Positions 23,943-47,339 of a stretch of 64,000 nucleotides of DNA are shown piece after piece. Each line of letters opens with the position of its first letter. Positions within the stretch are counted from its first letter, which is position 1. This DNA is from Lophium mytilinum (taxonomy: Eukaryota), in the NCBI GenBank assembly GCA_010093605.1, contig MU004192.1:690882-754881 (forward strand), given 5' to 3'. The notes beneath the pieces were generated by a model, which was given only the letters and a program-made list of their open reading frames with translations, made no database searches and was not told the DNA's origin. Position numbers and translations under genes: made by a program.

Positions 23943-26900
23943 TTACCATGCGCCCGTCTTAGGCTGGCCACCATATGCCATCTCTCTGAAGCCCTCTGGG
24001 ACCGTCCATCCATGCGTGTTGCAAGCGCGGATGTACGCTTCGACAGCCTCGCCGACACCATAATCGCCCATCGGGCCGTTCTCAAGACGAGCTGGTTTGG
24101 GATCTAGACTGGACATGGCCATGCGGACTTGGAGAAGGACGGATTCGATGGAAGAGACGGCGCTCCAGCCGTTGTTGGTTAAAAGCTAAGAAAGTTAGTG
24201 GTTATAAATATAAAAGTATGCTTAAAAGATGATTGGGGGGTATAGCTGTGAGGAATGACATACCTCCATGCACAAAGCGCCTCCAATAGTGACATGTCCA
24301 CCGCCACCTGCCTGGAAACCCAGAAACCGTGGACGTATGACTCGCACAAATGGCGGGCTCATTGGATAGTCTTTCCCGAATCGCAACTCCATAACGATAC
24401 TCTTGATGTCCTTTGACTTCATGTCCTTTGCGAGAGGAAGAGTAGGATCAAAGGAGTGCAGCTCAACAATCCACTGGTACATGTTCGTGATCAGTTCTGG
24501 ATCGATGTACCAGCCTAGTTCGTGTAGAGGCTCAGTGTTCTGCACTTTGAGGAGCGCCTTAAAGTCTTGTTGAAGTCGCTTGGTTGCGGAGCCCGTGGCC
24601 CAAGCTGGTGGCTCAAGCATGGGTAGCTTAGAAGTATCGAGGCTGCCAGGAACGAAATCTGTCATGGGTTTCGACGGCTTGGAATCTTTCGACGAGCCAA
24701 CAAGCTTGGAGAAGAATGAGGTTGCTTTGCCTTTCCCTTTTCCAACATAAGTTTGTGCCTCGGGTTCATTCTCCTGCACAGGCAGGTCGTCATCGCAAAG
24801 GATAACGAGGTCTTCCTCCAACGTAGCAACACTTGCCGAATCATCGAAGTCCTCATCCAGAACAATTGGGTCAGATATGTTCTTTCCAGACGCCTTGATA
24901 CGCTTGCTAGTGGTTTTGATCGATACGGAACGGGGTCGGCGGGAATGTGAGACGGCCGTAATCGGGATCATGATCTTCTCGGCGGGCCCTGTTGGTGTGT
25001 AATTCGGATCTTGGTCGTGAACCTGAAGTGGTCTCGTATCTTTCACTGCATTGACATCGGCCTGGGAGCCCTTGACAAACAGGTATCGAGTTTGGATCCA
25101 GTCTAGCTGAGCGACCACCATATGCGGGCTTGAACTGACGAATTCCTTCGGGGCGTTGACAATCTCGTTCAAAGCGATGGCGGAGCTGACCTTAAGCTCG
25201 CTCAGAGGCCATGCTGATGTTGTAGTATACCCGTAACCACAGTAGCCCATGCTCGTGTTATACTCAAGAGAGTGGTAGACCCCATGACCGTAGGCTCTGC
25301 CATGCGCGGTATGGTTGAAGTGCAGGCCCTCTCGGATGATGCTGTGCCAGTTCTGGAGAGGGCTGCCATGCCAGGCAAACATTGTGGGGTATTTCAGCTT
25401 CAAGCGATCTGAAGTGCTCCGAACAGCAGTAATGAAGCGCCGCTCCTTGTCAGGCGCCCCCATAGCAAATCGAAATTGGGTGTACCCGGCCATTCCGTAC
25501 AGTCGCTCCTCACCTTTCTTGCCCTTTGGGTCTGTTGAATAATCAACTTGCATAATACAAGCCCGGTTCGATGCAATGATCCACCGTAGAATTCCCAAGG
25601 CGGCCGGAGATATGCGATCGACCCAAGTGTTCAAACCTGACTGTGCCTTCCGCAGAAGATAAAGTCTCATGTCAGCCACACTGGGCAGGCAATCCAATAG
25701 AGAGTAGATGGCTTGTCGTTTGTAGAACTCGTGGAGCTCGTCGAAATTCTGGTTGTACGGATAGTAAGTGGCTGGAATGAAGTTCGAAGGAACGATGCCG
25801 ACGGGCGGCTTAGGATAGTTCGGAGCACCATGGTTTGGGCCAAGAGAGTTATCAGGTAGAACGCTCGCTGGAACGACCGGCTCCGAAACTTTCACTACAG
25901 GGAAGAAGTTGGTCTCTACGATACGGCAATGGAGTGAACGCGTTGGGTTATCAGCAGTGCGAATAATAACCCAATCTCCATTCCTGAATGGACACGGCTC
26001 GTTTGGAGCATCGAAGATCATCTCAAGCTTCGAAGTGTCGAAACGCATCTTGCCAGGCAAAGTGGCTGCCGTGGTACTCTTGGCTGGAGAGGGCGGTGCC
26101 TGTAGAGTGTTGTTATAAGGCGGCATATATCCGGGGTAGTTGCTCGCGGACGCGTTCAGATCCAGATTTTCAAGTGCGGTCGCAGGAGGAACCATCAAGC
26201 TCAGACCAGTTGGGAAGTCCTTCAAACCGCCTTGCCTGGCACTGGCATAGCAGAAGCTAATGAGCAGGTCCACCACCTTTGGTTGTGCGATGATCTCATG
26301 CTCAATGCTGGGGCCAAAGCCAAGGGACATGTACTGGTATAAGCAAAGAGGCTTGTCGCAGACGTAAGGCTTGATTGCTTCGAGGTCATCCGCCATCTTG
26401 CCGAAGCAAACAAGACAGAACTCAGTACAACGCACAAAGTGCCGGAGAACAAATTGCATGGCGATAAGTGGGAGCGAGGTGACCTGGTCTGAGGCAGCCT
26501 CCTGGACATGGTCCCCCGTGACGAGCGCTGGGTATGCTGTAGCGACCTGTTCTGGCTCCATGTATTTATCGTTCATCATGTCGGAATTCTCGACATTTGT
26601 CCCCAGGTGGTCAGTGTAGTACTGTTCCGCTCCAGACCATGGCATACCCATGTATCGGTACTCAATCAGCGTAACGAGTCGCTCGTTCAGGAGCTCGTTC
26701 AGGGGCCGAGAGATGAACGAGTTGCGGAAGCCTCGCCCGGCCGACGGATCTTGTGATTGGGAGTCACCTTGTGCTGCTTCGCGGCGCTTTTCTTCATCCT
26801 TGGACAATATAGTGAACGCCCGAACGGCCTCCTGCATGGTGGGCTTGTAGGTATTGCTGATCCCGATCCTCATACTAATATGCCGACGAGCCGTAGCAGC

Positions 26901-27650
26901 ATCGTAGCTCCTCAAGGATTCCACGCTCTTGTATCCGTTAGGGTAGTGAAGAATCAGGACCAGATACTCGGTTGGCTCGATCTGCCATGCTTGCATGGCT
27001 TCTTCGGAAATGCCCAATTTGGCAATTCGACACGAAATGGTGACATAGCAGCCTAACCCATCCATCAGAGACCCGAGGTGTCCGACCTTGAAGCCAGTCG
27101 TTTTGGCTCCTAGAAGATCTGCTCGAATGCGATGCCGGAACTGCGACGTGGGCTGCGTGTAGGACGATGGATCAGCAGCCTCTGATTTGGAATATTGCGC
27201 TTTAGGGACAACATCGTCATCGGGGAAGTACTCGTCCGCGGAATAGTCCTCCTCTTCGTCGTCGTCGTCCTCATAGTCAGAGCCATAGGCCTGTTGGGAG
27301 TCCATCATCTGAGTATCCCCGTCCCGGTCTGTGGACTCCAGTTTTCGGGCGACTAACTCGAGGAGTTGAACAATAGTCTTGCCTGTGGCTGCATCTGCAA
27401 TATCCGGGAGAGCCTGGGCAACCTTATTGGGAACATTGTCGGAGGCAAACAGCATGCAGGTGTGACTTGATGGGTACTCTGAGAGCTCCGGGATTAGTGC
27501 AGACAGCTCCATGGTGTCGCCATTGGCTACGTTCTTGACGCGGAACGTGAACTCCCCATCGTCGCCGCCAACTTGAACATCGCTGATACCAGCGATAGAG
27601 AGCCCTCCGACGGCCTGCTGGAGGTCCGCAATGTACGCCTTCCTAGGCAT
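23943..27650 (-). CDS. PARP/ART catalytic domain + UBE2Q-like ubiquitin-conjugating (E2) domain fusion protein
   Basis: FAWHGSPLQNWHSIIREGL..HGRAYGHGVY (ART H-Y motifs), CTEFCLVC..KPYVCDKPLC (Cys cluster) and ELRFGKDYPMSPPFVRVIRPRF..GGHVTIGGALCME|LLTNNGWS (E2). The last exon follows an intron and ends at TAA 23943-23945. Confidence 0.88.
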
Positions 27651-28613
27651 CGTGGAGGTGAAATGTTTCTTGCTGAGCGGTACGTGTGTGGAGTCCTAGG
27701 TAAAGTGAGGCGGGGGTGGTGCCGAGCTCCTGACTGCGGCAGCAAATATGCAGCTCCAAGCTCTTCAGAGGAGCTAGATAGAAGGATGTCTAGCTTGGAG
27801 GACGGGGAATTTGGGTGTTGGTGGTCCAGATTGAGCTGCAATGTGGAGAGCTGGCTTCTTGAGGCTGGTGGTGGTGGGGCAAGGCTGCTGAGGTTGGTAC
27901 AAACACACGGCGAACCTTGGAACACAGCTGGGAGAACGATGGATCCTGAAAGGCCCAGCAGAGCACGGCAGGAGGCAGCCGTCTCGGGTGTGGGAGAGAC
28001 AAATGAAAGAAGGGTGGTCGGAGGCTGCTGGCGGGAGTTTGGTGTTTTAGATAGCGGTCCAGGCAGCAGACAGCAGACAGCTCGAGCAGGAGCGCGAAAA
28101 AAGAGTAGCCAAGCTGCGGGCGGAGGAATCACGGTGCGATGTCTTGCACGGGAGATGACTGGTCAATGGCGCGTTAGAGACGATTCAGGAGAGCGGTTTG
28201 GCAAGGCATTCACAGCCGTCTGGAGCCTTTGCCAGGCAGCAAGTGGGCAGTGTGGCAGTGAACTGAGCTCCCCGCCAGCACGGCCGCAAGAGGGACCTCG
28301 CCGTAGATAGGCTGTGGAGTTAGCGATAGTGGGAGCTGGCCCACGAGGCTGTAGCAACAGTAGACGGTATGGCTGCGACAATGAGAGAGAGCTGGCCGCT
28401 GTTGAAGCAGAATTGGCCGTGAATGCGGTGCTGGTACACTACAGCGAAGTAAACAGCTGAAGGCGATCGGTGCCTGGCCTGTCACGCTGTGGCGGCGAGG
28501 GGCACCTTTAGCCTCATCCGCATCCCGACCAAGGTTTCTAAGCTCCCGCAACTAGCCACGCCGTTAATTCAATCTGCACCGCCATCGTCCCTATTCAACA
28601 CCATCTGCGCAGC

Positions 28614-29651: not shown

Positions 29652-30409
29652 AACAACGCGTCCCGTATCTCGCCAGTTGGGTCGTGGTCTGCTTGGGGTA
29701 GCACCTACGTACCGTGCAAATATCCACCAAAGAGCACCGAAGCGCTTTTCAGCTATTTTTCGTGTCTCTAACCGCATACTCATGGCACTTCTTGAGTTAG
29801 ATCCTCTTTGGCCTAGATCTTTACTTCTTCAATTTTCAGCGTCATCTTAGAAATCTAGTTACTCCAATATTTGCCTCAGCATGCCTTAAGGTATCAGCAA
29901 TGTTATGGCGGGCCAGAACGAACGTTTACCATCACTAGGTTGACTGTTCAAAATCCTGTTATCCGTTCGGCCGATTGACGAAAGCAAGCTCCGGCTTCCC
30001 CAGATTCTCCAGGTTCTCCAAGCCATGTACGGATGCTTGTTCACTGGGGCAAGGATCTCCTCGATTTCGGAATCATGGGCATGGTTCCGCCGTCTTCCGC
30101 CACTGCATTGCGGTCGAAGCAGCGGGGTGGATCTACTCAAGCTAAACTTCAATGGTCAGTAGCTTCAACGACGTTACTATTTTTCACAGCGTTCATCGAA
30201 CTCCTTGGTTGGAGCCAATAGGACATGCGCATAAGAATACAAGCTACACTGTACACACCAACGATATGCGGTGACTGGACAGCGAGCGAACCTAAAAGGA
30301 CCACGAGGGCATTATGTCTCCACTCTTCGTAGCACACAACATAAATCATCTTCGGGCCTTGCATTTCCTACCTCTCTTTCTCAACAAACTCCTCCCTACT
30401 TTGTCTAAG

Positions 30410-32230
30410 ATGGTTGTAACGCGTGCCCTAGCATTTTTTGTCTTCCCTCTGTGTATACTTTCAATTGCTCTGCATCCAAAGACTCCCATCGTCGACCTCG
30501 GCTATGCAAGCTACAGTGGCTATTACAATGCCTCTGTCGGTATCAATTACTTCCGTGGGATTCCATATGCTAAATCGCCTACCGGCGAACTACGATGGCG
30601 CAAGCCTGTCCCCATAGACAGTGCTGTCAAAAACAGCAAGCAACTTATCAGTGCCAGTTCACCAGGTCCAGCCTGTTACCAAGGCAGTCCAACTTGGGCA
30701 GACTTCGGAGCTACGCTATCCTCTCAAGGCTCCTTTGCGCAATCAGAGGATTGCTTGATATTAGATATGCTAGTCCCGAGCAATCCAGTATCTCATCGTC
30801 TTCCTGTGATCGTGCAAATTCACGGTGGTGGCTACACCCTTGGCAGTGCGGCGCTGTTCCCGGGCGATGCCATGGTCAATCAGTCCAGCGGAACCGTGAT
30901 CTATGTCATTATTCAGTATCGTCTCGGCGTCTTCGGATTCCTCGCCGGTGAGTCAATCGCAAAAGACGGCAATTTAAACGCAGGATTGCTAGATCAGAGG
31001 GCAGCATTAGAATGGGTAGGCGTGCCCATTTGCTATCCTATTCCTTCATCCCATCCTAGAGACTGATCTTTCCTAGCTTAAACGACATATACACGCATTT
31101 GGGGGAGATCCGTCTCGTGTTACCGTATGGGGTGGCTCTGCTGGCGGAGGCTCTGTATCTTTACAGTTGACTGCATATAGCGGCAAAGGTACTCCTCCGT
31201 TCTCTGCTGCCATTGCCGAATACCCTTGGTGGCAGCCATTTCTCAATCCTGCTATACAGGAAGCCCAGTACGACACTACTCTTCGTTTATCGGGCTGCAG
31301 CGATTTAAACTGTTTACGTTCACTCTCCGTAGCAGACTTGGCAAATGCCGGACAAGCTGTTTTGAACGTGTCATACCCTAGCGCCGGGTACGGATATGGC
31401 CTCTTTTACTTCGGCCCTGTTGTTGATGGAATTTTTGTTCGAGATCTCCCAAGTAACGAATATCGCGAGGGTCATTTTTACAAGGTGCCTACGATCGTGG
31501 ATCACGAGGGTTACGAGGGAGTCATTTTCACTAATTTTACACTGACTACGACCGAAAATGAGACTAAAGATGTAAGATGTCCTTTTGTTTGCTCTATACA
31601 ACTACCAGGGCAGGCACTGATTTCAAATTACCCCCATTAGGCGCAGTACATCTTTCCCTCGGCGGATGCTTCTTTCTTCTCTCGCCTCTACGAGCTCTAC
31701 CCCAGTTCCGATTTCAACTCCACCTTCTTCCAACGCCAGCAATGGTTCGGCGATGCAATAATCAACTGTAAGCTTTCTACTTCTTCACAAACAGCCTACA
31801 TCTCTTCCCGGTCGTGTCTAGCCCTCAATCCGGCTCACGTCTTGCCTCAGGTCCGTCATACCAAATAGCGAATGGAGCAGCCACCCATTCCCCAAACCCA
31901 CACGCCATCTACAAACTCGTAACCGCAATCGGCACCGAGCTCCACAGCTCTAATCTGCCTTTTCTCAATTCCGTGGATCCTGGCTTTACGTCTGCGCCAA
32001 ATGCCACAGTTGCTAAGATCCTTACGGGCTACTGGTTATCCTTTGCAACGACCGGTAGTCCAAATCCGCGCCGCTACCCCGGGGCGCCGTACTGGCCGTC
32101 TTATGTGGGTGCTTATGGTGGGAAGCGTATACTGAGTATCAACTATACGCAGATTGGGACGGTGCCGGATCCGGATGAGGGACCGAGGTGTGATTTCTTC
32201 AGCTCTGAGGGGACGATTGTTGAGAATTAG
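30410..32230 (+). CDS. Secreted type-B carboxylesterase/lipase
   Basis: Signal peptide, FRGIPYAKSPTGELRW, SEDCL, IHGGGY, QYRLGVFGF, NAGLLDQRAALEW, FGGDPSRVTVWGGSAGG nucleophile elbow. Confidence 0.93.
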
Positions 32231-32889
32231 AAAGGTAGGGTCTGGACCTTCGTGAGCAAGCCCCAAACATGGTTGGGGAATGTTTGGTTAGTTTCCAATC
32301 AATTCAAACGTCAATCACACTATCAGTTGAATTTGGCATGAGTTTTTGTAACAAACCTTATGGTTTCAAAACAATCGCACTTTTAAGAGTTTTGATATAT
32401 TTATACATTTCTAGCTTCCCTCCGCCGGAACTCTCAAGAGACGCCAACCTATACTAGATGCGCAGACGCTATCGCGCACACGTAAAGTCTCACATAGTCT
32501 CCTCGAATATGGACGACCGCTGCCATGCGAGCGATGATGACCCTTTTCACCCCATCGAAATTCTCCCTTGAGTGGTACTCATCGTATGGGTGCTTGGAGG
32601 AGTTTGGTGACTGTGTTTCCTCTGGAAGTTCAGGTTCTTTCAAAAAACCCGTAAACGATGCGCCAACCGGGATGGAGCTTTGAGACGTGGATTTTCGATC
32701 CGGTGGTGCTACAAAATCTCTTGAACGCTTGAGATCATATATATTTTAGCTGAATTTTTATTTACTTTCTAGTGGTATATTCGAATGGTCGAGGAGGGCA
32801 GAGAGGAGTGGCGTACGAGATGGTCGTTGTAAGCTTGTCGTTTTCGCCATTTGTGCATGAACTCTACTGACATTTCCTGTCAGACACGT

Positions 32890-33705
32890 CAGCCCATTGC
32901 ATCCGGTTCACAGTCGGTGTTGTGATCTACGAAGATCACCGAGTCTACCATATTGTGGCGAAGGCTCTGCGGATCCAACTGTGCGTTTGGTTTAGCATCA
33001 AGAATGGGTTTCCGGAAGGACTGGAGTTTCGATTCGGGCCCGTGGCAAATCCAGAAGTGAACATACTTCGCATTAGTCAACATTGCCTCCTGGGCTTTCT
33101 GAGAACTGGGCTTTGGTCAGGTTGGCCCTTATTTCAATACTCGGCATTAGTGGAAGATAGGAGTGGCGCCGCATTAACGAAGTTCATGATGGATTCTATG
33201 AAGACATTCCCTCTAAGTCTAAAGGTGGTCGCATGGGAATGGGACCCTTAGAATCCGGAAGATAACACATGCTTCAATGGGTACCGAGAAGTAAGTCACT
33301 TCCAGTATTTAAGATATACACATTCAACTGACAAGCCTAAGAGTCCTCCAAGTTTCCGGCCATTCTTTTTTGGGAAACGATAGACTAAGCGATAGATCGT
33401 TGTCGATTACTGTATCTGAACTCCTCGCGATATTCGACTGGTAATTGGGTTGATCGAAACCGCGCTGCTGCGCTCCCCGACTCACGGCATCACTACAGCA
33501 TTCGGTGAGCATTCACTGAAGCCTATTCTGACGCGGGACGCCGAATCCGAGAAGCCCACTGGCCATGCTGTCTCCAAAGTAAGTATATCTGCCATTGCTT
33601 TTTATCCCTCATGCTCACTAACCCTTATCTAGTCGAGCTATTTCTGGGCATGGTTCGAGAACGGAAAAAGGACTATGCTAGCATAGAACTACCAATCTGA
33701 CAACC
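32890..33705 (+). pseudogene. Decayed paralog fragment A of the 34430-37512 gene
   Basis: DHRVYHIVAKALRIQLCVW..FRFGP..VNILR..DRSGAA..VAWEWDP*, LLRSPTHG..KPILTRDAE and FWAWFENGKRTMLA*NYQSD align with the intact gene, with the same intron positions. In-frame stops at 33249 and 33684. Confidence 0.75.
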
Positions 33706-33709
33706 TCTC

Positions 33710-34130
33710 TAGCCCAATTTATGAGCCTAGAGCTGGACAAGAATGAGTGTGGCCTAGCTCTACGCCCAGTCGCTTGGGATTGGAACAAGGAAAATGAGTC
33801 TGCTGGGCTCATTTTTTACAACGACCACGACGAAGTGAGTACTCCTGTCAGCGTCTTTAGCGCAACTAACATGTCAAAGAACTCTCCGTTACCGCCCGGG
33901 AATACTGGTCCATCTACCTAGCGATGCGGAGTCACGGACTGTGCTATTCGAAAACTATCTGAGATCCGTGGTGCGATTAGGCTGCTTGAGCAAGCTCTCC
34001 TTCGGTCACCAACGCACGGCTTGACGACTCCACTTGGCAAGCAATTCCTGAAGCCAATACTAGGGTGAGATGTCGAGTTTGCAAAATTGCCTCAGCAGCC
34101 GGAGGACGTCTCTCTTTACTAGCAGTCGCT
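33710..34130 (+). pseudogene. Decayed paralog fragment B of the 34430-37512 gene
   Basis: LDKNECGLALRPVAWDW..YNDHDE|intron|..DCAIRK..LLRSPTHGLTTPLGKQFLKPILG*DVEFAKLPQQP. TGA at 34066 where the intact copy has TGG. Confidence 0.75.
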
Positions 34131-34429
34131 GAATCAAGTCAACCCAGAGCCGCTCCGAAGGCATGCTAATTCTAGTGTAAACCTAGCCTGTCTCCAAGAT
34201 GTTATTCTCAATTCACTGGGACCATTATTGGACCGGTCAGAATCACATCAAGAGCATGGAGGAGGTGATGCGACAAGTCACTATTAAAGATTCACTGTGT
34301 AGGTCGTCAAGGATGGATCTCAAACCGGGGGGCTCCCCTTAAAAAGACCCATAGCTGAGTGTTTACTACCACAAGGAGCCCACACGACGAGAAAGTACCA
34401 CCACCACCACCCATCGGCCTCCGTTATCC

Positions 34430-37400
34430 ATGTCCAATCCTTTCACAACGTTCTCCGCAGTCCCTCAATCATATGAACGATCGTTTTACCGCTCTGTTGC
34501 GCTACTTTGTACCGGAGATGCCGAGAACCACATCCTGGTTAAGAGGCAGGTCCAGAATGCGTTCTTGGTAGCATACATCACTAAGAAACACCTGGACTAT
34601 GACAGATATGTCAAGTTCGAAAAGCAAAGCGTCGGGCCGGAGTCGTGCCCACTCTTTGCTCTTTTAGAATGCCCAGAGCTTCAGCCCGACCGTAGGGTGT
34701 ATCGCATCGTGGCTAAGGCCTTGAGGATTCAGCTCTTTGTCTGGACGAGGTTGCAAAATGGCCGCCCACAAGGGTTGGCATTCCGTTTTGGACCTACTGA
34801 TAGTCCAAAAGTTAACATCCTCCGGTCGAGCAACTCGAAAATGCAGGGCTTTGGCACATCCTGGTTCTCTCATTATACTTCATTAGTGGTGGATAGGAGT
34901 GGAGCAGCTGCCTTTGAGTATATGCTCCAAGAAAAAGATAAAGACACGAATGGACTAGCCATGAAGCTTGTCACTTGGGAGTGGGAAAAGGGCACAACAT
35001 CTGGTTTCAGATGTTACAACGGCCACGATCAGGTAAGATAGCTTTATAAGCTCACATTCTATAGACATAGCTAACGTCTCGAAGGGTTCCAGGGAACGTG
35101 GTCAAAGATCCGATTCGTCGAGCGAGATTTGCTCAGTTGTTGACTGCGCCATTCGGAGACCGTGGCAGATTCGAGAAGCGCTCGATCTTATTGAAAGAGC
35201 TTCGCTCCGATCACCTACCCATGGACTCACGGCTCCTTTGGGCACCAAGGTGTTGAAGCCGGTTCTTGGATGGGACGCTGAGTTCGAGAAACGGCCTCAG
35301 CAACCTAGCGACCTATCTCGTGACGAACTTACGTCGCGATTTGTCCATGGCGAGTTCGAAGAGCTTGTTTCAGTAATAGTTATCTTTGTTGGGGAACAAG
35401 CCTCATTCAAATTCTATATACTTGAAATGCTAGAAAACCCAACCACGGAAACCGTCTCTGAGGTAAGTTTTATGTGCGTTGCCCAACTCCAAGCTCAAGT
35501 CTAATTCGAAAAATAGCTAAGCCATTTCTGGGAGTGGTTCAAGGATGCGAAAAAGATCATGCTCGCTTATAACCTCCAGAGCGACATGCACGCCATCAAG
35601 GGCTCCATAGCCCACATGTTCCAGGATGACAACAGGCCAGACTTTCAGTACGAGTCTTGGTATCTGGTCGATGGCAAAAAGTTCCACACCATCCGTCCAC
35701 AGTGGAGATTGCCTAAAGGTCAATATTTTGGTGGTCGACTTCCCTTGTCCCTGCAGTTCTCGAGGCATCCTTTCCAGTGCCCCTTCCACTCCAGTAAACT
35801 CGATCGTGGATTGACATGCTTCTGCGAACATTGCATATTGGATGTGTCTACCATATTCGATTATATGTGCAGAACTGCGGGGATAGCGAACGCGCCTCCA
35901 GTGCATGGATGGGGCGAACCTCCATTTGGATACAGGTACGAGAAGTTTTTGCAGTCTGTCTTGGCCGGAGATCGTATGCTAGATCTCCTGGAGCATTTCA
36001 AGAATGCACCTGAGCGTTACGGTGACACTGGCAAGTTTTACTCCACCATTGTTGGGGATCCAAACTTGCAGCACTCAAATATCGTTATCGAGTATCTCTT
36101 AGGAGACGTCTTGGGACTGGTGAGAGCTCTGTTGGCTATTCTTACCACAGACAATCGTTGCTTGTAAGTGCACCGTCCTTCATCTCTGGAAAGTAGTTCT
36201 CGGGAAAAATACTAACTCGATTTGCAGGACGACCATACGACTCGTGAGGCATGCGAAACGAGACCCAGAATATTCGATGGTACTTCCACGGATAGCAACA
36301 CCGACCAAGGTCTCTTTGGGGTCCGGAATTATTTGCTACAATGACCATGCAAAGCATTTCCAACGCCCCACAGAGACCAAAGAACCCTTTTCTGGGTGCT
36401 GCCCACACCGAACACTGGACTATGAGAGTTACGGAGATGGGTGCTATAATACAGCAGCACCAGGGGACTCCAGCCGCACCAAAGGAGTATATCCATTCGT
36501 CGATGCGGGTACCCTGTCCTATGTAGACCATGTCCTTCGTAACGAAGCTCGAGACGAGGTCCTCTCCAGCATGGCGGAGGACCTATCCGCGATCAAAGGA
36601 AGGACGGTATCATCGATATTCCGGAGCCCGACATGGGATGAACAGACTTTTGTCAACGCCGCCCGGAACAAAGTCAGGCACGAACTATTCGATGTCTGCA
36701 GATTCACCCTCCCGGAAATCATGATGGTTCAAAGCACACATATACCACCCGTCGCCACCTCTGATCGCGGAGACTCAGTCGAAGACTATCCGGACCCCAT
36801 CATCCGCGCCGGCTCTACGTATGAGGAGTATCTCCTTGGCCTTTTGCGATCTACCAAGGCGGCATCCGTCGCACCCCCTCGTGGCTTCGGTGCTCCAGTG
36901 GGAAGCCTACACGGCCTGCCTCGGTTCTTGTACGATCTCCCCAGTGTCCCAGGGGCCGACCTTCCTTTCGCTCGAAACATTTACGACGCATTCCCCATTC
37001 GTGGGCCCCTCGTCGGCGATGCTCTCGGCGCTCCAACGCCCGAAAAGCCCCGCAAACCTCTCACCCCGCTGCAGACCCTCACAGAAGAAGAAACAGTAGC
37101 TTTCATGCCTGGCCCGGTCCCAGACCGCAATGAGAAAACGGCGCAGGAGTACTTTGATGCTCTCGCCCTATGGGTTCGCCTAGCGGAAGGTTCCCTCGGC
37201 GACATTGAGGGTGACATCAAGAAAGAGATCCAGAGGAATACGAAAGAGGGTTTGCCCGGAGACTTCGATGCCCGGGATATCTGGGATCCTGACGGGAGGG
37301 AATACGAAGCCCGGGTCAAAGCAGCGCCGGACTGGAACAAGCCACCTTTGGCGTTGCGGCGGCGGATGTTTATCGCTTATGGCAACGGGGACTGGATTTC

Positions 37401-37512
37401 CGAGAGCACTCGTCGCCTGAATGCATTGAAAAGGTTCATTACACGGGAGAAGAGGAAGATATCTAAGCTAGAAAGACAAGGGTTTGTGGAATCAAGTGGA
37501 TGGGGGGAGTAA
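34430..37512 (+). CDS. ~970 aa protein: OTU-like N-terminal domain + DEDDy (RNase D/WRN-like) 3'-5' exonuclease + uncharacterised C-terminus
   Basis: Exons 34430-35032, 35085-35462, 35517-36163 and 36228-37512 join in frame via GTAAG..CTAA..AG introns. Motifs: SFYRSVA..GDAENHILVKRQV and HYTSL (OTU-like); VLGWDAEF, AYNLQSD and EYLLGDV (Exo I/II/III). Confidence 0.65.
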
Positions 37513-38912
37513 AGCAACGTATTCGCATCGCACTTTCAAAGACTGTTGGGTATTTAGTGGGAGATTCTGAGACTGACTGTATAGAGATTTGGGTAACGTA
37601 GTTCGCTATGTCTGGTTAGTAGACATCTTGTAGATCTAGAGGGGTGGAGCATAGACAAAGAGTAGAAGAGGAGCACTGATGTTATTTTCACCGTTTCTTC
37701 CAGAGCTATATTTTCAATGCAACATAAAACATCGTCAATTTTCCATTCTTACCATCAAACCCCTCTACTATCTCGCGAGTTCCCACTGCCTCAACTCACG
37801 CTGCAAGCTCTGCCTCCTTGAAGCCTGTCGTTCGTCGAGTAACATGATACGTCACAGCTCACGTGCATATCTCACATGACCCGAAATTTCTTCGATCCTC
37901 GACTATAAAAACCCCCCTGACCTCAAGACCAGATTTCTTTCTTCAAGACGAGAAAATGGAAGTCCAGAGGACAACAAAATACCATATCTGGGAGGCCTTC
38001 ATGTCTCGTCCAGTTGTCAAAACAGCAAAGACTACGTGTTGATGTGGGATTGTCGGAATCTGGTGGTGGAAGCAAAACAAAGTCCGCTAGTGCGCCGTGA
38101 TGTGTTCCGTTCAACAGATTCGTTGTCTTTGTCCATGGTGTGGTGGGAGGTTGGGCGCGGTTGCAACAGTCTGTTTCATGTGCTTCCATAGGGTGGGAGG
38201 GACTGAACTGAGACGATGATGGTGACTATCCCCTCCCACTCCTACAGCCCTCGATTACCTCTCAAAAACTTCGGTCAATGTCTTCATGATACTGTCCACT
38301 GCCATGTATCAAGCTCGTTGATCAGCGATGTTTCGACGTCTCTCATCATCTCCATCCGCATAGTCTTTGGTCATGCTCACCATCATCCAATCCCAATGCA
38401 GGCGCCCACACAACGCCAACACCGCCAGACTGACCATGATACTTGGGCTTCCAACAGTTTTGCACCAACCCAGTCCCCTCCGATCCCATCAGCGGTCATT
38501 GCTTCCAGTTTGATAGAAATGATATGTGCTGCCTCCTAGAGTCTACAGACCGGACAGCCAGGCTCATGGTACTGTAACCGTTCCTTTGTTGCACCTCCCT
38601 TCAAGATCGCGACCTCCCTGTAGACTAGGGACTGGAAAGCGACGGAAGCTTTATAGCTGAGAAGTTAGAGCAACGACAGCTTAGTCAGTAACACGTGATA
38701 TCGCAATGCTCACTCCTGACGGCATCGTGAAGCGATCAATCATATTTTACAAGCCTCCCATATATCCTACAACTCACTAGCCAATCTATAAGAACGCCGA
38801 CCTGACCCTCGTCCGAATGAGCGACCTATATAAAACCAAAGCCCGTACAACACCAATACCCTTATCCCATACTCTTACACCAGCCTTCTACCACCAAGCG
38901 AAACCACCCAAT

Positions 38913-41551
38913 CTACCCAATCTGCCCCTGACCCCCCTGCAGCCCCTGCATCCACGCCTCCGCCATCTCATTCCCCGCCTCGCCCGGCGGCATAACTGAC
39001 CCAAACAGATCCATAACATCCGTCCCCATCAGCAACCCCTCAGGCATATAATACGGATCATCGCTAATCGGAAAGAACAGCGCATCCGCCACCCCCGCCG
39101 CACTCCCCCCCGGCAGCTCCGGCGGCGGCATAACCATATGGCTCTGATTCTGGTTCTGGTTCTGGGCCTGGTTCTGGGCCTGCTGCATACCGCTGTTGCT
39201 GGTCGGTTGATTCAACAGCGTGTTCGACCACCGGATGCGGTTCCCCTGCCCGGCCGCCCGCAGCTGCACGTCGCGCACGTACTCGCGCGCAATGTGCGCG
39301 AACTCGGAGACGAGGGAGCCTGGGAGGGTGCCGCCGGAGGCGTACTCGACGCGGGAGAAGTGGCCGCTGGCGACGTCGAGGAGGGCGAGGTTGGTGCTAG
39401 TCTCCGGGTGGGTGGGGTTGTGAATGACGAGGTCGAAGAGGACGAAGAGGCCGGAGAGGGGGACGCCGGCGAGGACCCTGCGTTGGGTTAGTAAGTGGCT
39501 TTTTCGGGGGGGAGGAGTGGAGGGGAGGGGGTTAAGTACCAGACGGGTGTGTAGGGAGATACGTCGATGTAGGGGGTCAGTTCTAGGATGGCGCATGAGG
39601 CTTTGACGAGCAGGTTTTTGCTTTCGGAGTGCCGGATTGATTTGGCGGAGTCTTCTCTAGAGGCCTCGGCGTTGATGTGTAAGGAGGCTCGGCACAGGGC
39701 GAGGACGTGGTTGTAGTAGAGGAGATGTACTCTGAGAGCTACGGTGGTGCTGAGAGGTCCCGGGAGTGCGTGAGCTCGGAATTGCTCGCCGGGGCGAACA
39801 CTGATGGGAATGGACATCCTCCAATGTTCCAGCTCTTCCATTAATTGACTGATCGTGTTGACGAAGTAGCTTATCGGGTTTGAGGCGACGCTGATTGAGA
39901 AAAGTGAGTTGTATGATCGGGATAGTAATCGGCCGTATCTTGCGAATGCGAGGAACCAGTCAAAGTCTCCGAATACTGCTGTAGGGGTGTACGGAATTGG
40001 ACAGCTAATGTCCGCGTCGATGAATACCTAGGAGCTACTTAGTAGTGCACTCCTGAAGTAGTACATGGGATGAAGGCAAACGTACCGACCCGCGCCCAGC
40101 GCAGAAAGTGGTCATCTTTTCCAACGAATAGACGACCCAGAACGCCCGATTGTAGACGCTGTCTGGGGATGCCCGCGACTTGATGAGATTCAAGTTCTGC
40201 GCTCTCCGAGCACTCTCTGATATCATAGTGTGTTCAATTTGAATGCATGAAACGCTCAAAGCAAATACGGACTAGGTTGAGGTTAGCAGTTTCTTTATGC
40301 GGAGGTGAATTGGGAGTGTCGTACCATCGCAGTGACAGCTTGCAGAGCTATGAGAGAATCGGGAAGGATGACAAGGTCTGGGTACAACGCTAGGGATACT
40401 GAGAAAAGCTGCCATGCTCGGTTCTGCCCAGGCTCGAAAGTTCCACCGTTGTTGTACTGCGATCCTAACGCAAGGACTGCATGATACAGTGCCGACCATG
40501 CTTTGTTCGTGTGTAGTATTTGAGAGAACTGGGGATTTGATAGGGTTTCCTGGAAGGCATGTTGGTCTAGGAAAGGGTAGAGAGGATGCACTTGTTCAAA
40601 GAAGGATCGTATATAGGCCGAGGTTAGATTGGGGTCCGAACTAATGTCCGCAGTCCATGACTTTGAGAGTACGTGATCAGTGATGATGTTTTCTTTTGCT
40701 TTAAGACGAGTGTTGATGACAGTGTCCGCCTTGTTCAGGACATCGTTGAGTCGGTTATGCCCCAGGCGAGTCGAGAGGGATTGTCGTCGGCCTTCGGAGA
40801 AGAACGTCAGACTATACCCGCTGTAGTCTCCACCTATCTTAAAGTTAGAGAAGTACAGTATATGAGTACTGTAAGACCAACCAAAGATCCCATTTCCCTG
40901 TGAATATCAGCACACATACCTAGCGGAAAAGGATCGAGTGGAATACCTTGAACGGAAACGTTTCAGACTTTTGTCTCTGTAAACCAGGTCTGTCAGAAAG
41001 GAGCCGGTCGATGTAAAGTTCCGGCAGGCTCTCGGCCGTCGGCTCCGTAGACTGCTGTACTTTCTTCGGCGCTTGAACGCTGATAGTTGACGCTTTTGCT
41101 GGAGGTTTTGACGCATCTGGATTCAGTGACATGACATGAAACGGAGACGCCGGTTCATCTTTGACGACCTTCGAGCCGAATACGGTTGACAGAGACTCTT
41201 GAGCCACTAATATCGTCAGCAAGGTCTTGGTATGCGCAGCGATGGCTCGTACATACATTCGCCGAATATGCGCTCGTAGCGATTTCGTCGTTTCGGTGCC
41301 GATGCAATACTGAAGTGGCACTCTACATTCCGGCGCTACAGGATCATATCAGCCTAAAGACTTATATATCTAAAAACGGTCAGGTGGTGATCTACCGTGC
41401 AGTTCTCGCATGGCCCAGGATACCCATGCCCTGACTAATCAGCTGGTGTTCACGTATATGAATGCTCTGAAGAGGAGAAGATACCTGTACACCGAACCTT
41501 ACGGCTCTTACACGCGTCGCACGACTTGAACACTTTTAGTGTTCCAATCAT
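38913..41551 (-). CDS. Zn(II)2Cys6 fungal transcription factor with middle homology region
   Basis: CDACKSRKVRC|..GPCENC|RRNVECHF split over three exons; HPLYPFLD, ALYHAVLALG and RAFWVVYSLEK fungal TF motifs; Q/N-rich C-terminus. Confidence 0.9.
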
Positions 41552-45394: not shown

Positions 45395-45839
45395 GGTGTG
45401 CGGTTGCTCGGTCGCAGCTTCCTTCTGGAGAGTTTGGGTGTGGGTGGTGTGTGGGAGATGGCGGGGTTGTGTGGTTGAAGCTGGTGGTTCATTGATGAGG
45501 TGCAGTTGCGCAGGCGCGTCGTTTACGCAAATAAACACGGGCCTCGGGACCTCCGACCTAGTGAACTAGCGCCAAATTTCGCAATCACTACGGAGCAGGC
45601 AGGCAAGCCTTCCTTACCTAAGCACGTGCTGAGCTAGCAATTCTCCGGCCTCGCTCACACTTCCCTCCCTAATTATGCCATGGACTGCTCCGACTGCACC
45701 CTTCAAAAACCGAAAATGTGTGTGCCTCAATTGCACCGGTGATCTCATCTAGTCTTGCCATCTTGTTTCTTCTCCCGAATATGGCTCTCCCAGTACTTTC
45801 CGTACGTGAATTCCCAACAGTTCCCCCAACCCGAATGGG

Positions 45840-47339
45840 ATGATTGCTAATATCTCCCAGTCTGCCAGAGGCTTCCAGTCCGTTGTCGCAGGACATACCT
45901 TGTTGCTAGGCCAAATAGCTTGGTACCGGCGATCAGAACTGTTCAGCAACCGCAGGCAGTTCGCATCCCAACCCGCCGAGAAGCCGGCGCAAGACGAACA
46001 GCTCGGCAAATCCGCGTCCTTTACCTCCTCATCGCCGCCATCATCTCCATCCTCTGGAACGACTTCTCCCGTCGCCTCCAGCTCCGGCGCCTCCTCAGTA
46101 CAGTCTCTACCGGCGGATTGGGAGGATCAGCTTCCAAATCTCGATGACTTCTCCCAGCTCCCCCACAAAGATTTCGGGAAGAACCAGCTTATAGAAACAA
46201 ACGAGGAGTTCAAACGAAGCCTGAGGCAGATAACGAGGCAATTCCCGGCTATCACGTATTCTTTTGCCTACGGTTCCGGCGTGTTTCCCCAAACAGATGG
46301 CTCCTCCTCTTCCACGTCGCTGAGCCCGCACCCAAATCCCCCGGAAGCGATTTCCAAGTGGCAGAGAGGCGGAGGCAAGATGATTGACTTCATATTTGCG
46401 ACCAAGTTCACCGAGCATTTCCACTCTCTGAACCTCATGCGCCACAGGGATCACTACTCGTTCCTCGGCTCTTTCGGCTCCAGCGTCGTCTCACACGTTC
46501 AGGACTCCTACGGGGCCGGCGCATATTTCAACCCTTACATTACCGTGAACGGCACCCTTATCAAATACGGAGTCGTGAACTTCAGCACTCTGCTCCGCGA
46601 CCTCACGGACTGGGACACGCTATACCTCGCCGGCCGCCTCCACAAGCCCGTGAAAATCCTAACCGAAGAACCAAACATCCGTGTCGCGAACCAGCGCAAC
46701 CTCATGGCCGCCGTGCGTTGCGCCCTACTCCTTCTCCCACCCCAATTCACCGAAAGGGAACTCTACACCACCATCGCCTCGCTCAGCTACCAAGGCGACC
46801 CGCGCATGGCCCTCGGCTCGGAACACCCGAACAAGATCGCGAACATCGTAACGCACCAAATCCGCAATTTCCGCCTCTTGTACAGCGACCTCATCAACAG
46901 CTTACCGAACGTCGACTACGCCGAATCCTCATCTTTCAAGGATGCCAGCTGGATCGACGACCTCAAGCTCGACCGGCCCATGACGCAGAACATGGAGACT
47001 GCCTTCCGCGGCAACATGGTCCGCCGCCTGCCCAAATCCTTCCGCCAAAAACTCTACTTCTTGTACCAGCGCAAATTCGGCATCCCGGGCCGCGAGTTCC
47101 AAGAGATGCTCGAAGCGAGCGCCGACGAAGACGCCAAGGGCAGCTTGAAGAAGCCCCTCGGGAGCGACTTTGATCGGCGCGTGGCGTCAGAGGCCGATCT
47201 CCCTAAGATGGTGGCTAAGGCCGTGAACCAGACGGTCAAGTGGCCGAGCGCGGTGCAGAGCCTGAAATCTGGGTTTACGGCAGGACCGGGGCGGGCATTG
47301 AGATATGTGCGGGAGAAGCGCGCGAAGGGAAAGCAGTAA
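45840..47339 (+). CDS. TAM41: Mitochondrial phosphatidate cytidylyltransferase (Tam41/Mmp37)
   Basis: FAYGSGVFPQ, KMIDFIF, YFNPYI..LIKYGVV, DLTDWDTLYLAGRLHKPV, LSYQGDPRM. Confidence 0.95.
   Translation: MIANISQSARGFQSVVAGHTLLLGQIAWYRRSELFSNRRQFASQPAEKPAQDEQLGKSASFTSSSPPSSPSSGTTSPVASSSGASSVQSLPADWEDQLPNLDDFSQLPHKDFGKNQLIETNEEFKRSLRQITRQFPAITYSFAYGSGVFPQTDGSSSSTSLSPHPNPPEAISKWQRGGGKMIDFIFATKFTEHFHSLNLMRHRDHYSFLGSFGSSVVSHVQDSYGAGAYFNPYITVNGTLIKYGVVNFSTLLRDLTDWDTLYLAGRLHKPVKILTEEPNIRVANQRNLMAAVRCALLLLPPQFTERELYTTIASLSYQGDPRMALGSEHPNKIANIVTHQIRNFRLLYSDLINSLPNVDYAESSSFKDASWIDDLKLDRPMTQNMETAFRGNMVRRLPKSFRQKLYFLYQRKFGIPGREFQEMLEASADEDAKGSLKKPLGSDFDRRVASEADLPKMVAKAVNQTVKWPSAVQSLKSGFTAGPGRALRYVREKRAKGKQ

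Follow-up and report, generated by a model that had tools for sequence, protein, structure and literature searches.

The window analysed here comprises 64,000 nucleotides (nt) of contig MU004192.1 (GenBank assembly GCA_010093605.1, positions 690,882 to 754,881 of the forward strand) from Lophium mytilinum, a dothideomycete of the order Mytilinidiales. It harbors a gene of four exons that begins with ATG at position 34430 on the plus strand, and whose product probably combines an inactivated OTU-like domain, a DEDDy 3'-5' exonuclease and a conserved C-terminal module in a single chain (Table 1). The exons are drawn from four stop-to-stop open reading frames (ORFs) of that strand (34355-35041, 35037-35504, 35517-36167 and 36124-37512) and, once spliced, give 970 codons followed by a stop. 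An original prediction, made from the DNA letters, had joined the four ORF fragments into one frame of 970 amino acids (aa). The assembly was correct, as the spliced translation is equal, letter for letter over 970 aa and the stop, to a protein held at NCBI (scripted comparison). The same protein disposes of the description of the gene as 'hidden', since a search with the exon-4 translation recovers it at 100% identity, already annotated as 'hypothetical protein BU16DRAFT_541053' of L. mytilinum (970 aa). The key residues had been placed accurately (Ser18 at 34481, D265 at 35274, E267 at 35280, D350 at 35583, Y520 at 36093 and D524 at 36105), and the short strings quoted for them and their surroundings are all present in the product (RSFYRS, SHYTSL, GWDAEF, VSVIVI, NLQSD, ILDVST and EYLLGDV).

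Expression is documented by a public run, X1, in which 91% of the words sampled from the locus occur. Among its contigs aligned to 32500-38300, one of 3883 nt covers 33633-33834, 33880-35030, 35083-35460, 35515-36163 and 36228-37730 with 0 mismatches, and leaves four GT..AG skips of 45, 52, 54 and 64 nt. It is on account of these skips that the contigs of X1 are read as RNA. As all three introns of the coding sequence (CDS) are spliced out in one contig, the four coding exons lie on one RNA, and the junctions, which the original prediction had left for transcripts to confirm, are borne out exactly as modelled. The gene is real, expressed and previously annotated.

Table 1. Features of the locus and its surroundings; positions are counted from the first letter of the window, and aa numbers refer to the 970-aa product
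Feature	Positions	Strand	Details
CDS exon 1	34430-35032	+	aa 1-201; OTU-like domain and linker; junction confirmed by transcript contig
CDS intron 1	35033-35084	+	52 nt, GTAAGA..AG
CDS exon 2	35085-35462	+	aa 202-327; start of exonuclease domain, Exo I; transcript-confirmed
CDS intron 2	35463-35516	+	54 nt, GTAAGT..AG
CDS exon 3	35517-36163	+	aa 328-542 and 2 nt of codon 543; Exo II, Cys/His motif, Exo III; transcript-confirmed
CDS intron 3	36164-36227	+	64 nt, GTAAGT..AG
CDS exon 4	36228-37512	+	aa 543-970 and stop codon; C-terminal module; transcript-confirmed
OTU-fold domain	34466-34900	+	aa 13-157
Ser18 codon	34481-34483	+	OTU catalytic Cys position, from profile alignment to OTUD5/OTUD1 and column counts; just before model helix 19-28
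His148 codon	34871-34873	+	presumed OTU His-loop histidine position (SHYTSL); model strand 147-154
DEDDy 3'-5' exonuclease core	35121-36258	+	aa 214-553, spanning introns 2 and 3; structural alignments begin as early as aa 167-172
Exo I motif D265-A-E267	35274-35282	+	D in 43/46 and E in 44/46 homologues; strand 261-271
Exo II motif N346-L-Q-S-D350	35571-35585	+	N in 45/53, D in 50/52; D350 at start of helix 348-361
Cys/His motif C415-x2-H418-x9-C428-x-C430	35778-35825	+	C in 54/54, H in 51/52, C in 47/53, C in 52/54; insertion between Exo II and strand 5
Asp436 (ILD; family consensus GN-I-D)	35841-35843	+	strand 434-436, after the Cys/His motif; D in 44/50, E in 4
Exo III motif Y520-L-L-G-D524	36093-36107	+	Y in 55/65, D in 55/65; helix 515-536
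C-terminal region	36277-37509	+	aa 560-970; conserved module at ~aa 727-950; long helices 848-883 and 935-959
Minimum mRNA extent	33633-37730	+	3883-nt spliced contig
5' leader intron	33835-33879	+	45 nt, GTGAGT...AG; falls in decayed copy B at the counterpart of CDS intron 1 (copy alignment around ...NDHDE/VST...)
Decayed partial paralogue A	32934-33701	+	matches aa 87-350, 37% identity; in-frame stops and deletions (tblastn)
Decayed partial paralogue B	33715-34113	+	matches aa 163-279, 44% identity; in-frame stops and deletions; inside mRNA 5' leader (tblastn)
PARP-domain ORF	24222-27695	-	1157 aa; PF00644, E 1.2e-10, aa 771-831; remainder without Pfam match
Carboxylesterase-family gene	30296-32230	+	PF00135; three consecutive ORF pieces, presumably three exons
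Fungal-specific transcription factor domain frame	38913-40906	-	PF04082, E 5.4e-4, weak, under cut-off
Tam41/Mmp37 phosphatidate cytidylyltransferase	45810-47339	+	E 1.8e-117, clear

The product belongs to an uncharacterised family. A phmmer search against 1.84 billion representative proteins returned 90 homologues at an expectation value (E) of 1e-3 or below, 57 at E<=1e-10 and 24 at E<=1e-30. Many are 900-1200 aa long and align from residue ~17 past 550, with partial homologues matching the N-terminal part alone, the middle or the C-terminal stretch (727-954). The fusion itself, taken as an ungapped OTU Cys-loop region together with a full D-E-D-Y-D set, is present in 23 of the 90 aligned homologues. 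Names for relatives come from a search with the consensus-like homologue P0014, which gave 11 relatives with 8 rows named; the same search with exon 4 or with the family alignment as query recovered the gene's own protein alone. Besides that protein, the named homologues are from Zasmidium cellare (two), Oleoguttula mirabilis, Cercospora kikuchii, Aplosporella prunicola, Pseudocercospora fijiensis and Cirrosporium novae-zelandiae. Cirrosporium belongs to the Xylobotryomycetes, the other genera to the Dothideomycetes. All seven homologues are labelled 'hypothetical' or 'uncharacterized' and carry no precomputed Pfam domain. In the open-access PMC and bioRxiv literature no description of an OTU-DEDDy fusion was found, apart from the protein-primed family-B DNA polymerases (pPolBs) discussed below. 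The view that the architecture is uncharacterised thus held up. Searches of PDB sequences with exon 3 and with the whole protein gave chance-level matches alone (E>=0.27; EngA, DHFR-TS).

The N-terminal domain adopts an OTU fold. The AlphaFold2 (AF2) model of the exon-1 product, built from a 35-sequence alignment, has a predicted local distance difference test score (pLDDT) of 87.7 and a predicted template modelling score (pTM) of 0.78. Foldseek against the PDB finds five matches for it at E<=1e-3 (the viral OTU protease, or vOTU, of Crimean-Congo haemorrhagic fever virus, OTUD5, OTUD1 and OTUD3), and all rows listed, to rank 50, are OTU-type. In the profile matches to OTUD5 and OTUD1, the family loop 'sdGlslYraLarqviGd' aligns to 'EDGACLFRAVADQVYGD' and 'PDGNCLYRAVSKTVYGD', placing the family Ser on their Cys, which we take to be the catalytic Cys of the OTU Cys loop. 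The column at this position holds S in 25 homologues, T in 10, A in 4, N in 2, W in 1 and K in 1, with Cys in 0 of 43, in line with the earlier call of an OTU domain with Ser in place of Cys. Of 45 homologues, 9 have His in the His-loop column, and 9 of 45 have Asp two residues further on. As Ser18 replaces the catalytic Cys, the domain is incapable of thiol-protease chemistry, and on these columns most members of the family would be unable to form a catalytic dyad. The domain is most likely an OTU-like pseudo-enzyme and not a deubiquitinase of the OTU type, so that deubiquitinase activity is not expected, and its role is most likely a non-catalytic one in binding or regulation. The OTU cleft probably still binds something; the fold suggests ubiquitin or a ubiquitin-like protein (UBL) as a candidate ligand.

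Three further observations concern the OTU domain. In the homologues with Ser-His-Asp in the triad columns, the triad looks complete but for a change of Cys to Ser. Four homologues (P0003, P0014, P0015 and P0020) have a Cys one position ahead of the nucleophile column. Among viral structures, the best Foldseek matches of the OTU model are the N-termini of the baculovirus VP80/P87 capsid proteins (E 4.7e-6 to 4e-4), which rank above annotated viral OTU proteases.

The middle of the protein has the fold and the residues of a DEDDy exonuclease, as had been predicted. The full-length AF2 model (pLDDT 84.0, pTM 0.84, 90-sequence alignment) is of low confidence in the segments 1-12, 610-632, 714-722, 921-923 and 965-970. 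In this model, the residues of the Exo I, II and III motifs lie on the secondary-structure elements expected of a DEDDy fold, and the domain falls within the DnaQ-like RNase H fold. The D-E-D-Y-D set is conserved across the family, with the fold core at aa 214-553. The Foldseek ranking of the whole model is led by Trypanosoma brucei RNase D, the Nibbler EXO domain, At5g06450, Egalitarian, RICE1, RRP6, WRN and EXD2, with OTU proteins interleaved. By its fold and all three motifs, the family is assigned to the DnaQ-like DEDDy superfamily, outside the current PF01612 model, from which it has diverged too far to be recognised. In DEDDy enzymes the acidic residues hold two metal ions and the Tyr positions the attacking water.

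Taken together, these results are best explained by a protein of three parts, a pseudo-OTU domain (13-157), a DEDDy exonuclease (~170-553) and a conserved C-terminal module (560-970), and this reading in full is considered probable. Because an intact, conserved nuclease site sits beside an OTU site that is never Cys, the nuclease is taken to be the working enzyme. The protein is most likely an active, metal-dependent 3'-5' exonuclease whose substrate is probably RNA and whose OTU module, without proteolytic activity, serves in binding or regulation. In such a mechanism, D265, E267, D350 and D524 would coordinate two Mg2+ or Mn2+ ions and Y520 would orient the attacking water, and the domain would remove nucleotides one by one from the 3' end in the manner of WRN, RNase D, Nibbler and the RICE proteins. 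The OTU module (aa 13-157) would serve as the non-catalytic binding or regulatory part, and aa 560-970 would form a largely helical conserved module packed on the rest of the protein. RNA is the preferred substrate by analogy: RICE1, Nibbler, RNase D, RRP6 and Egalitarian, which make up most of the nearest structural neighbours, bind RNA or act on it; WRN, just as close in structure, acts on DNA.

Several results weigh against this reading. With the whole model as query, Foldseek against the PDB gave no match at E<=1e-3, the best being 1.6e-2. DEDDy exonucleases and OTU proteins nevertheless head its ranking, and both domain calls of the original prediction, which rested on motifs, withstood the structural tests. 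Pfam scans of the exon products, of the full chain and, one by one, of 29 members of the family stayed below threshold throughout. A match to PF01612 (DNA_pol_A_exo1) is absent from the same three sets, and a Pfam OTU match is absent from the exon-1 product at E<=1, from the whole protein at E<=10 and from the 29 members at E<=0.1. The OTU link is weak at the level of sequence as well: a profile of the 29 members against PDB sequences gave three matches at E<=10, namely OTUD5 (0.15), apolipoprotein A-I (0.28, low-complexity helical) and OTUD1 (1.7). The transcript support consists of one assembled contig from one run, the RNA status of which is a guess in its record ('RNA?'). Finally, Ser18 and His148 are both present in the gene's own protein and a subclade has Ser-His-Asp, so that 'non-catalytic' can be no more than a probable description of the OTU module.

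This last point opens an alternative for the N-terminal domain, by which it would be an OTU-fold hydrolase with a Ser nucleophile (Ser18-His148, with Asp in relatives), making the protein a peptidase or isopeptidase and a nuclease in one. The nucleophile column is occupied by Ser or Thr in 35 of 43 homologues, which is tighter than a dead site requires, and the loop around it is among the best-conserved parts of the domain (G16 in 36/43, Y20 in 40/46, R21 in 37/45). His148 is kept in the protein of L. mytilinum, and the triad columns read Ser-His-Asp in five homologues (P0011, P0012, P0017, P0056 and P0075) and Thr-His-Asp in P0003. The two columns that would complete such a site are, however, seldom filled, leaving most homologues unable to form a dyad or triad, as counted above. 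The gene's own protein follows His148 with Tyr and Thr150, where Asp or Asn would be needed, so that its triad columns read Ser-His-Thr, and it has Tyr15-Glu16 ahead of the loop where the family has Asp-Gly. To our knowledge, no natural OTU with a serine nucleophile is known. A Ser-dependent hydrolase is accordingly judged quite unlikely, and the pseudo-enzyme remains the preferred reading of the domain.

A second conserved feature lies within the nuclease domain, where a family-specific insertion (~aa 362-433), containing a β-hairpin at 370-386, separates Exo II from the next core strand. Towards its end are C415, H418, C428 and C430, which probably bind a structural zinc ion. This Cys/His motif explains the weak match to Maelstrom (MAEL; PF13017), the sole Pfam match obtained, which spans aa 388-457 against profile positions 140-208 of 215 and thus covers the motif. 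The match scored E 0.0024 and 18 bits with exon 3 and E 0.0055 and 16.9 bits with the whole protein, below the 22-bit cut-off of PF13017, and was found at E<=0.1 in 1 of the 29 members.

The match raises the question of whether the nuclease domain should be grouped with DEDD nucleases that carry zinc, of the MAEL and arenavirus nucleoprotein type, and so be the fungal equivalent of the protist MAEL that is active as an exoribonuclease. In the available text of PMC4408791, MAEL is described as a DEDD-fold protein in which an ECHC motif binds a structural Zn; an amoeba MAEL that retains the DEDD and ECHC residues alike is active as an exoribonuclease, and the two motifs also occur in the Lassa virus nucleoprotein (NP). 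The present family likewise joins a DEDD-fold nuclease to an extra, strictly conserved motif of metal-binding type (C-x2-H...C) between Exo II and Exo III. On the other hand, the family is DEDDy, with Y-x3-D, whereas protist MAEL is described as DEDHD, i.e., DEDDh, in the available text of PMC2628886, in the main text of which the word stem 'fung' is absent. In addition, the four candidate ligands here are Cys and His rather than Glu plus three. The Pfam score falls short in the way described, and the family profile against PDB sequences retrieved no MAEL chain at E<=10. Maelstrom and arenavirus nucleoprotein chains are missing from the structural rows listed for the nuclease, an absence that is not evidence of difference. 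Membership in this group is thus an outside chance, and a DEDDy exonuclease with its own Cys/His insertion is the better description.

The C-terminal region (aa 560-970) matches no known fold, and Pfam finds nothing there. It is modelled mostly at pLDDT 80-95 (AF2). Separate homologues match 727-954, and the consensus motifs of the region include 'VRAG-T-H-EAL', 'PP-GFG' and 'DPEGR-YRRR'. An ESM Atlas search with the C-terminal 411 residues gave scores <0.8 and TM (template modelling) values <0.3, with nothing usable.

The region also bears on the possibility that the protein descends from a pPolB of a polinton, virophage or linear plasmid, of which it would retain the N-terminal half, domesticated or as a relic, after loss of the polymerase part. 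According to the available text of PMC11161782, pPolBs are built as TP-vOTU-Exo-Palm (TP, terminal protein), with a vOTU-like domain directly before the exonuclease, and the vOTU is inactivated in adenovirids. This is the only architecture with an OTU beside an exonuclease found in the literature searched, and the domain order is shared: in pPolBs of polintons, virophages, adenovirids and linear plasmids, as here, an OTU-like domain lies immediately N-terminal to a DEDDy exonuclease and is inactivated in some lineages (PMC11161782, available text). Furthermore, the top three clusters in an ESM Atlas feature search with the whole protein carry PF03175 (DNA_pol_B_2), at 0.86, 0.85 and 0.82, though all are under the 0.9 bar, and decayed tandem copies adjoin the gene. 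Set against this, a polymerase domain is absent, with no Pfam match in aa 543-970 and the low C-terminal Atlas scores just given, and polymerase chains among the structural matches align through their exonuclease parts only (~160-205 residues). The OTU fold starts at residue 13, leaving no space for a terminal-protein domain before it. No pPolB occurs among 50 viral Foldseek rows for the OTU domain, from a library without polinton and plasmid pPolB structures. The gene also has three spliceosomal introns and ordinary neighbours (a carboxylesterase, a fungal transcription factor and Tam41). A polymerase relic is very unlikely on this evidence, and the three-part exonuclease is retained.

As to known systems, the protein would work like a WRN, RNase D or RICE-type DEDDy exonuclease with a binding module appended. 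RICE1, RICE2 and At5g06450 (Arabidopsis DEDDy exoribonucleases; PDB 5v5f, 1vk0) share ~10-11% sequence identity with it. The RICE proteins, ~200-aa and single-domain by chain length, are without the OTU module, the ~70-residue C-x2-H-x9-C-x-C insertion and the 400-residue C-terminal module. Relative to WRN, Nibbler/Mut-7, RNase D, RRP6, Egalitarian and EXD1, the Cys/His insertion, whose four residues would hold a structural zinc in the proposed mechanism, and the C-terminal module are specific to the present family; we know of none of these proteins with an N-terminal OTU domain. The OTU deubiquitinases (OTUD3, OTUD1, OTUD5/DUBA, yeast Otu2 and the nairovirus vOTUs) differ in the active site, with Ser18 here in place of the catalytic Cys, a residue that no homologue has at that column, and a His that few retain.

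A more specific proposal is that the family are ubiquitin- or UBL-guided 3'-5' exonucleases, in which the dead OTU would act as a reader docking on a ubiquitinated target and the DEDDy domain would trim the attached RNA. Targets could be, for example, a stalled or marked ribosome, chromatin or a ribonucleoprotein complex, and the C-terminal module and zinc insertion would give specificity for substrate or partner. Such a fungal system would follow the same logic as nucleases recruited via ubiquitin-binding domains. In a bolder version, members with Ser-His(-Asp) would be the first natural serine-nucleophile OTU hydrolases. The original prediction had likewise put forward ubiquitin binding and a part in antiviral or genome defence, both of which are conjectural. 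The proposal of ubiquitin guidance is speculative and regarded as unlikely; the less specific reading, of a nuclease with a binding or regulatory OTU module, is the one preferred.

Both folds are textbook ones. What is undescribed is their fusion, the family-wide change of the OTU Cys to Ser or Thr beside a conserved nuclease site, the Cys/His insertion and the 400-residue tail of no known fold. The closest structural relatives (RICE1, Nibbler, WRN-type, RNase D and RRP6) work in small-RNA and RNA 3'-end pathways, making the family an assayable candidate for an RNA-processing or surveillance step in Dothideomycetes. It also offers a natural setting in which to study the function of an OTU domain that lacks the Cys, and it allows two recognisable domains to be assigned to ~90 clusters of 'hypothetical proteins'.

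Directly upstream of the gene lie two decayed partial copies of it, which, like the conserved Cys/His motif, the conserved C-terminal module and the transcript, go beyond what the original prediction had noted. Their position and state indicate that the locus went through partial tandem duplication followed by decay, with one intact gene left. This invites the view that a duplicated family is decaying here and that the intact frame, as one of its members, has no current function. The two upstream copies are plainly dead, with in-frame stops and deletions, and the OTU loop of the intact gene is without the Asp-Gly of the family. In addition, the mRNA leader, which traverses decayed copy B, is 752 nt long when spliced (33633-34429, plus strand) and holds 12 upstream ATGs, with upstream ORFs of 3-61 codons. 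Against loss of function stand a 970-codon frame unbroken over four exons with canonical splice sites, correct transcription and splicing, 11 of 11 conserved nuclease and Cys/His residues retained, and the pTM of the full-length model. Loss of function is therefore extremely improbable. The leader may reflect the promoter of the dead copy reading through, or may be a feature of translational control. Copy A is overlain by a low-depth spliced contig (33157-33290 and 33342-33516) with a GT..AG skip of 51 nt.

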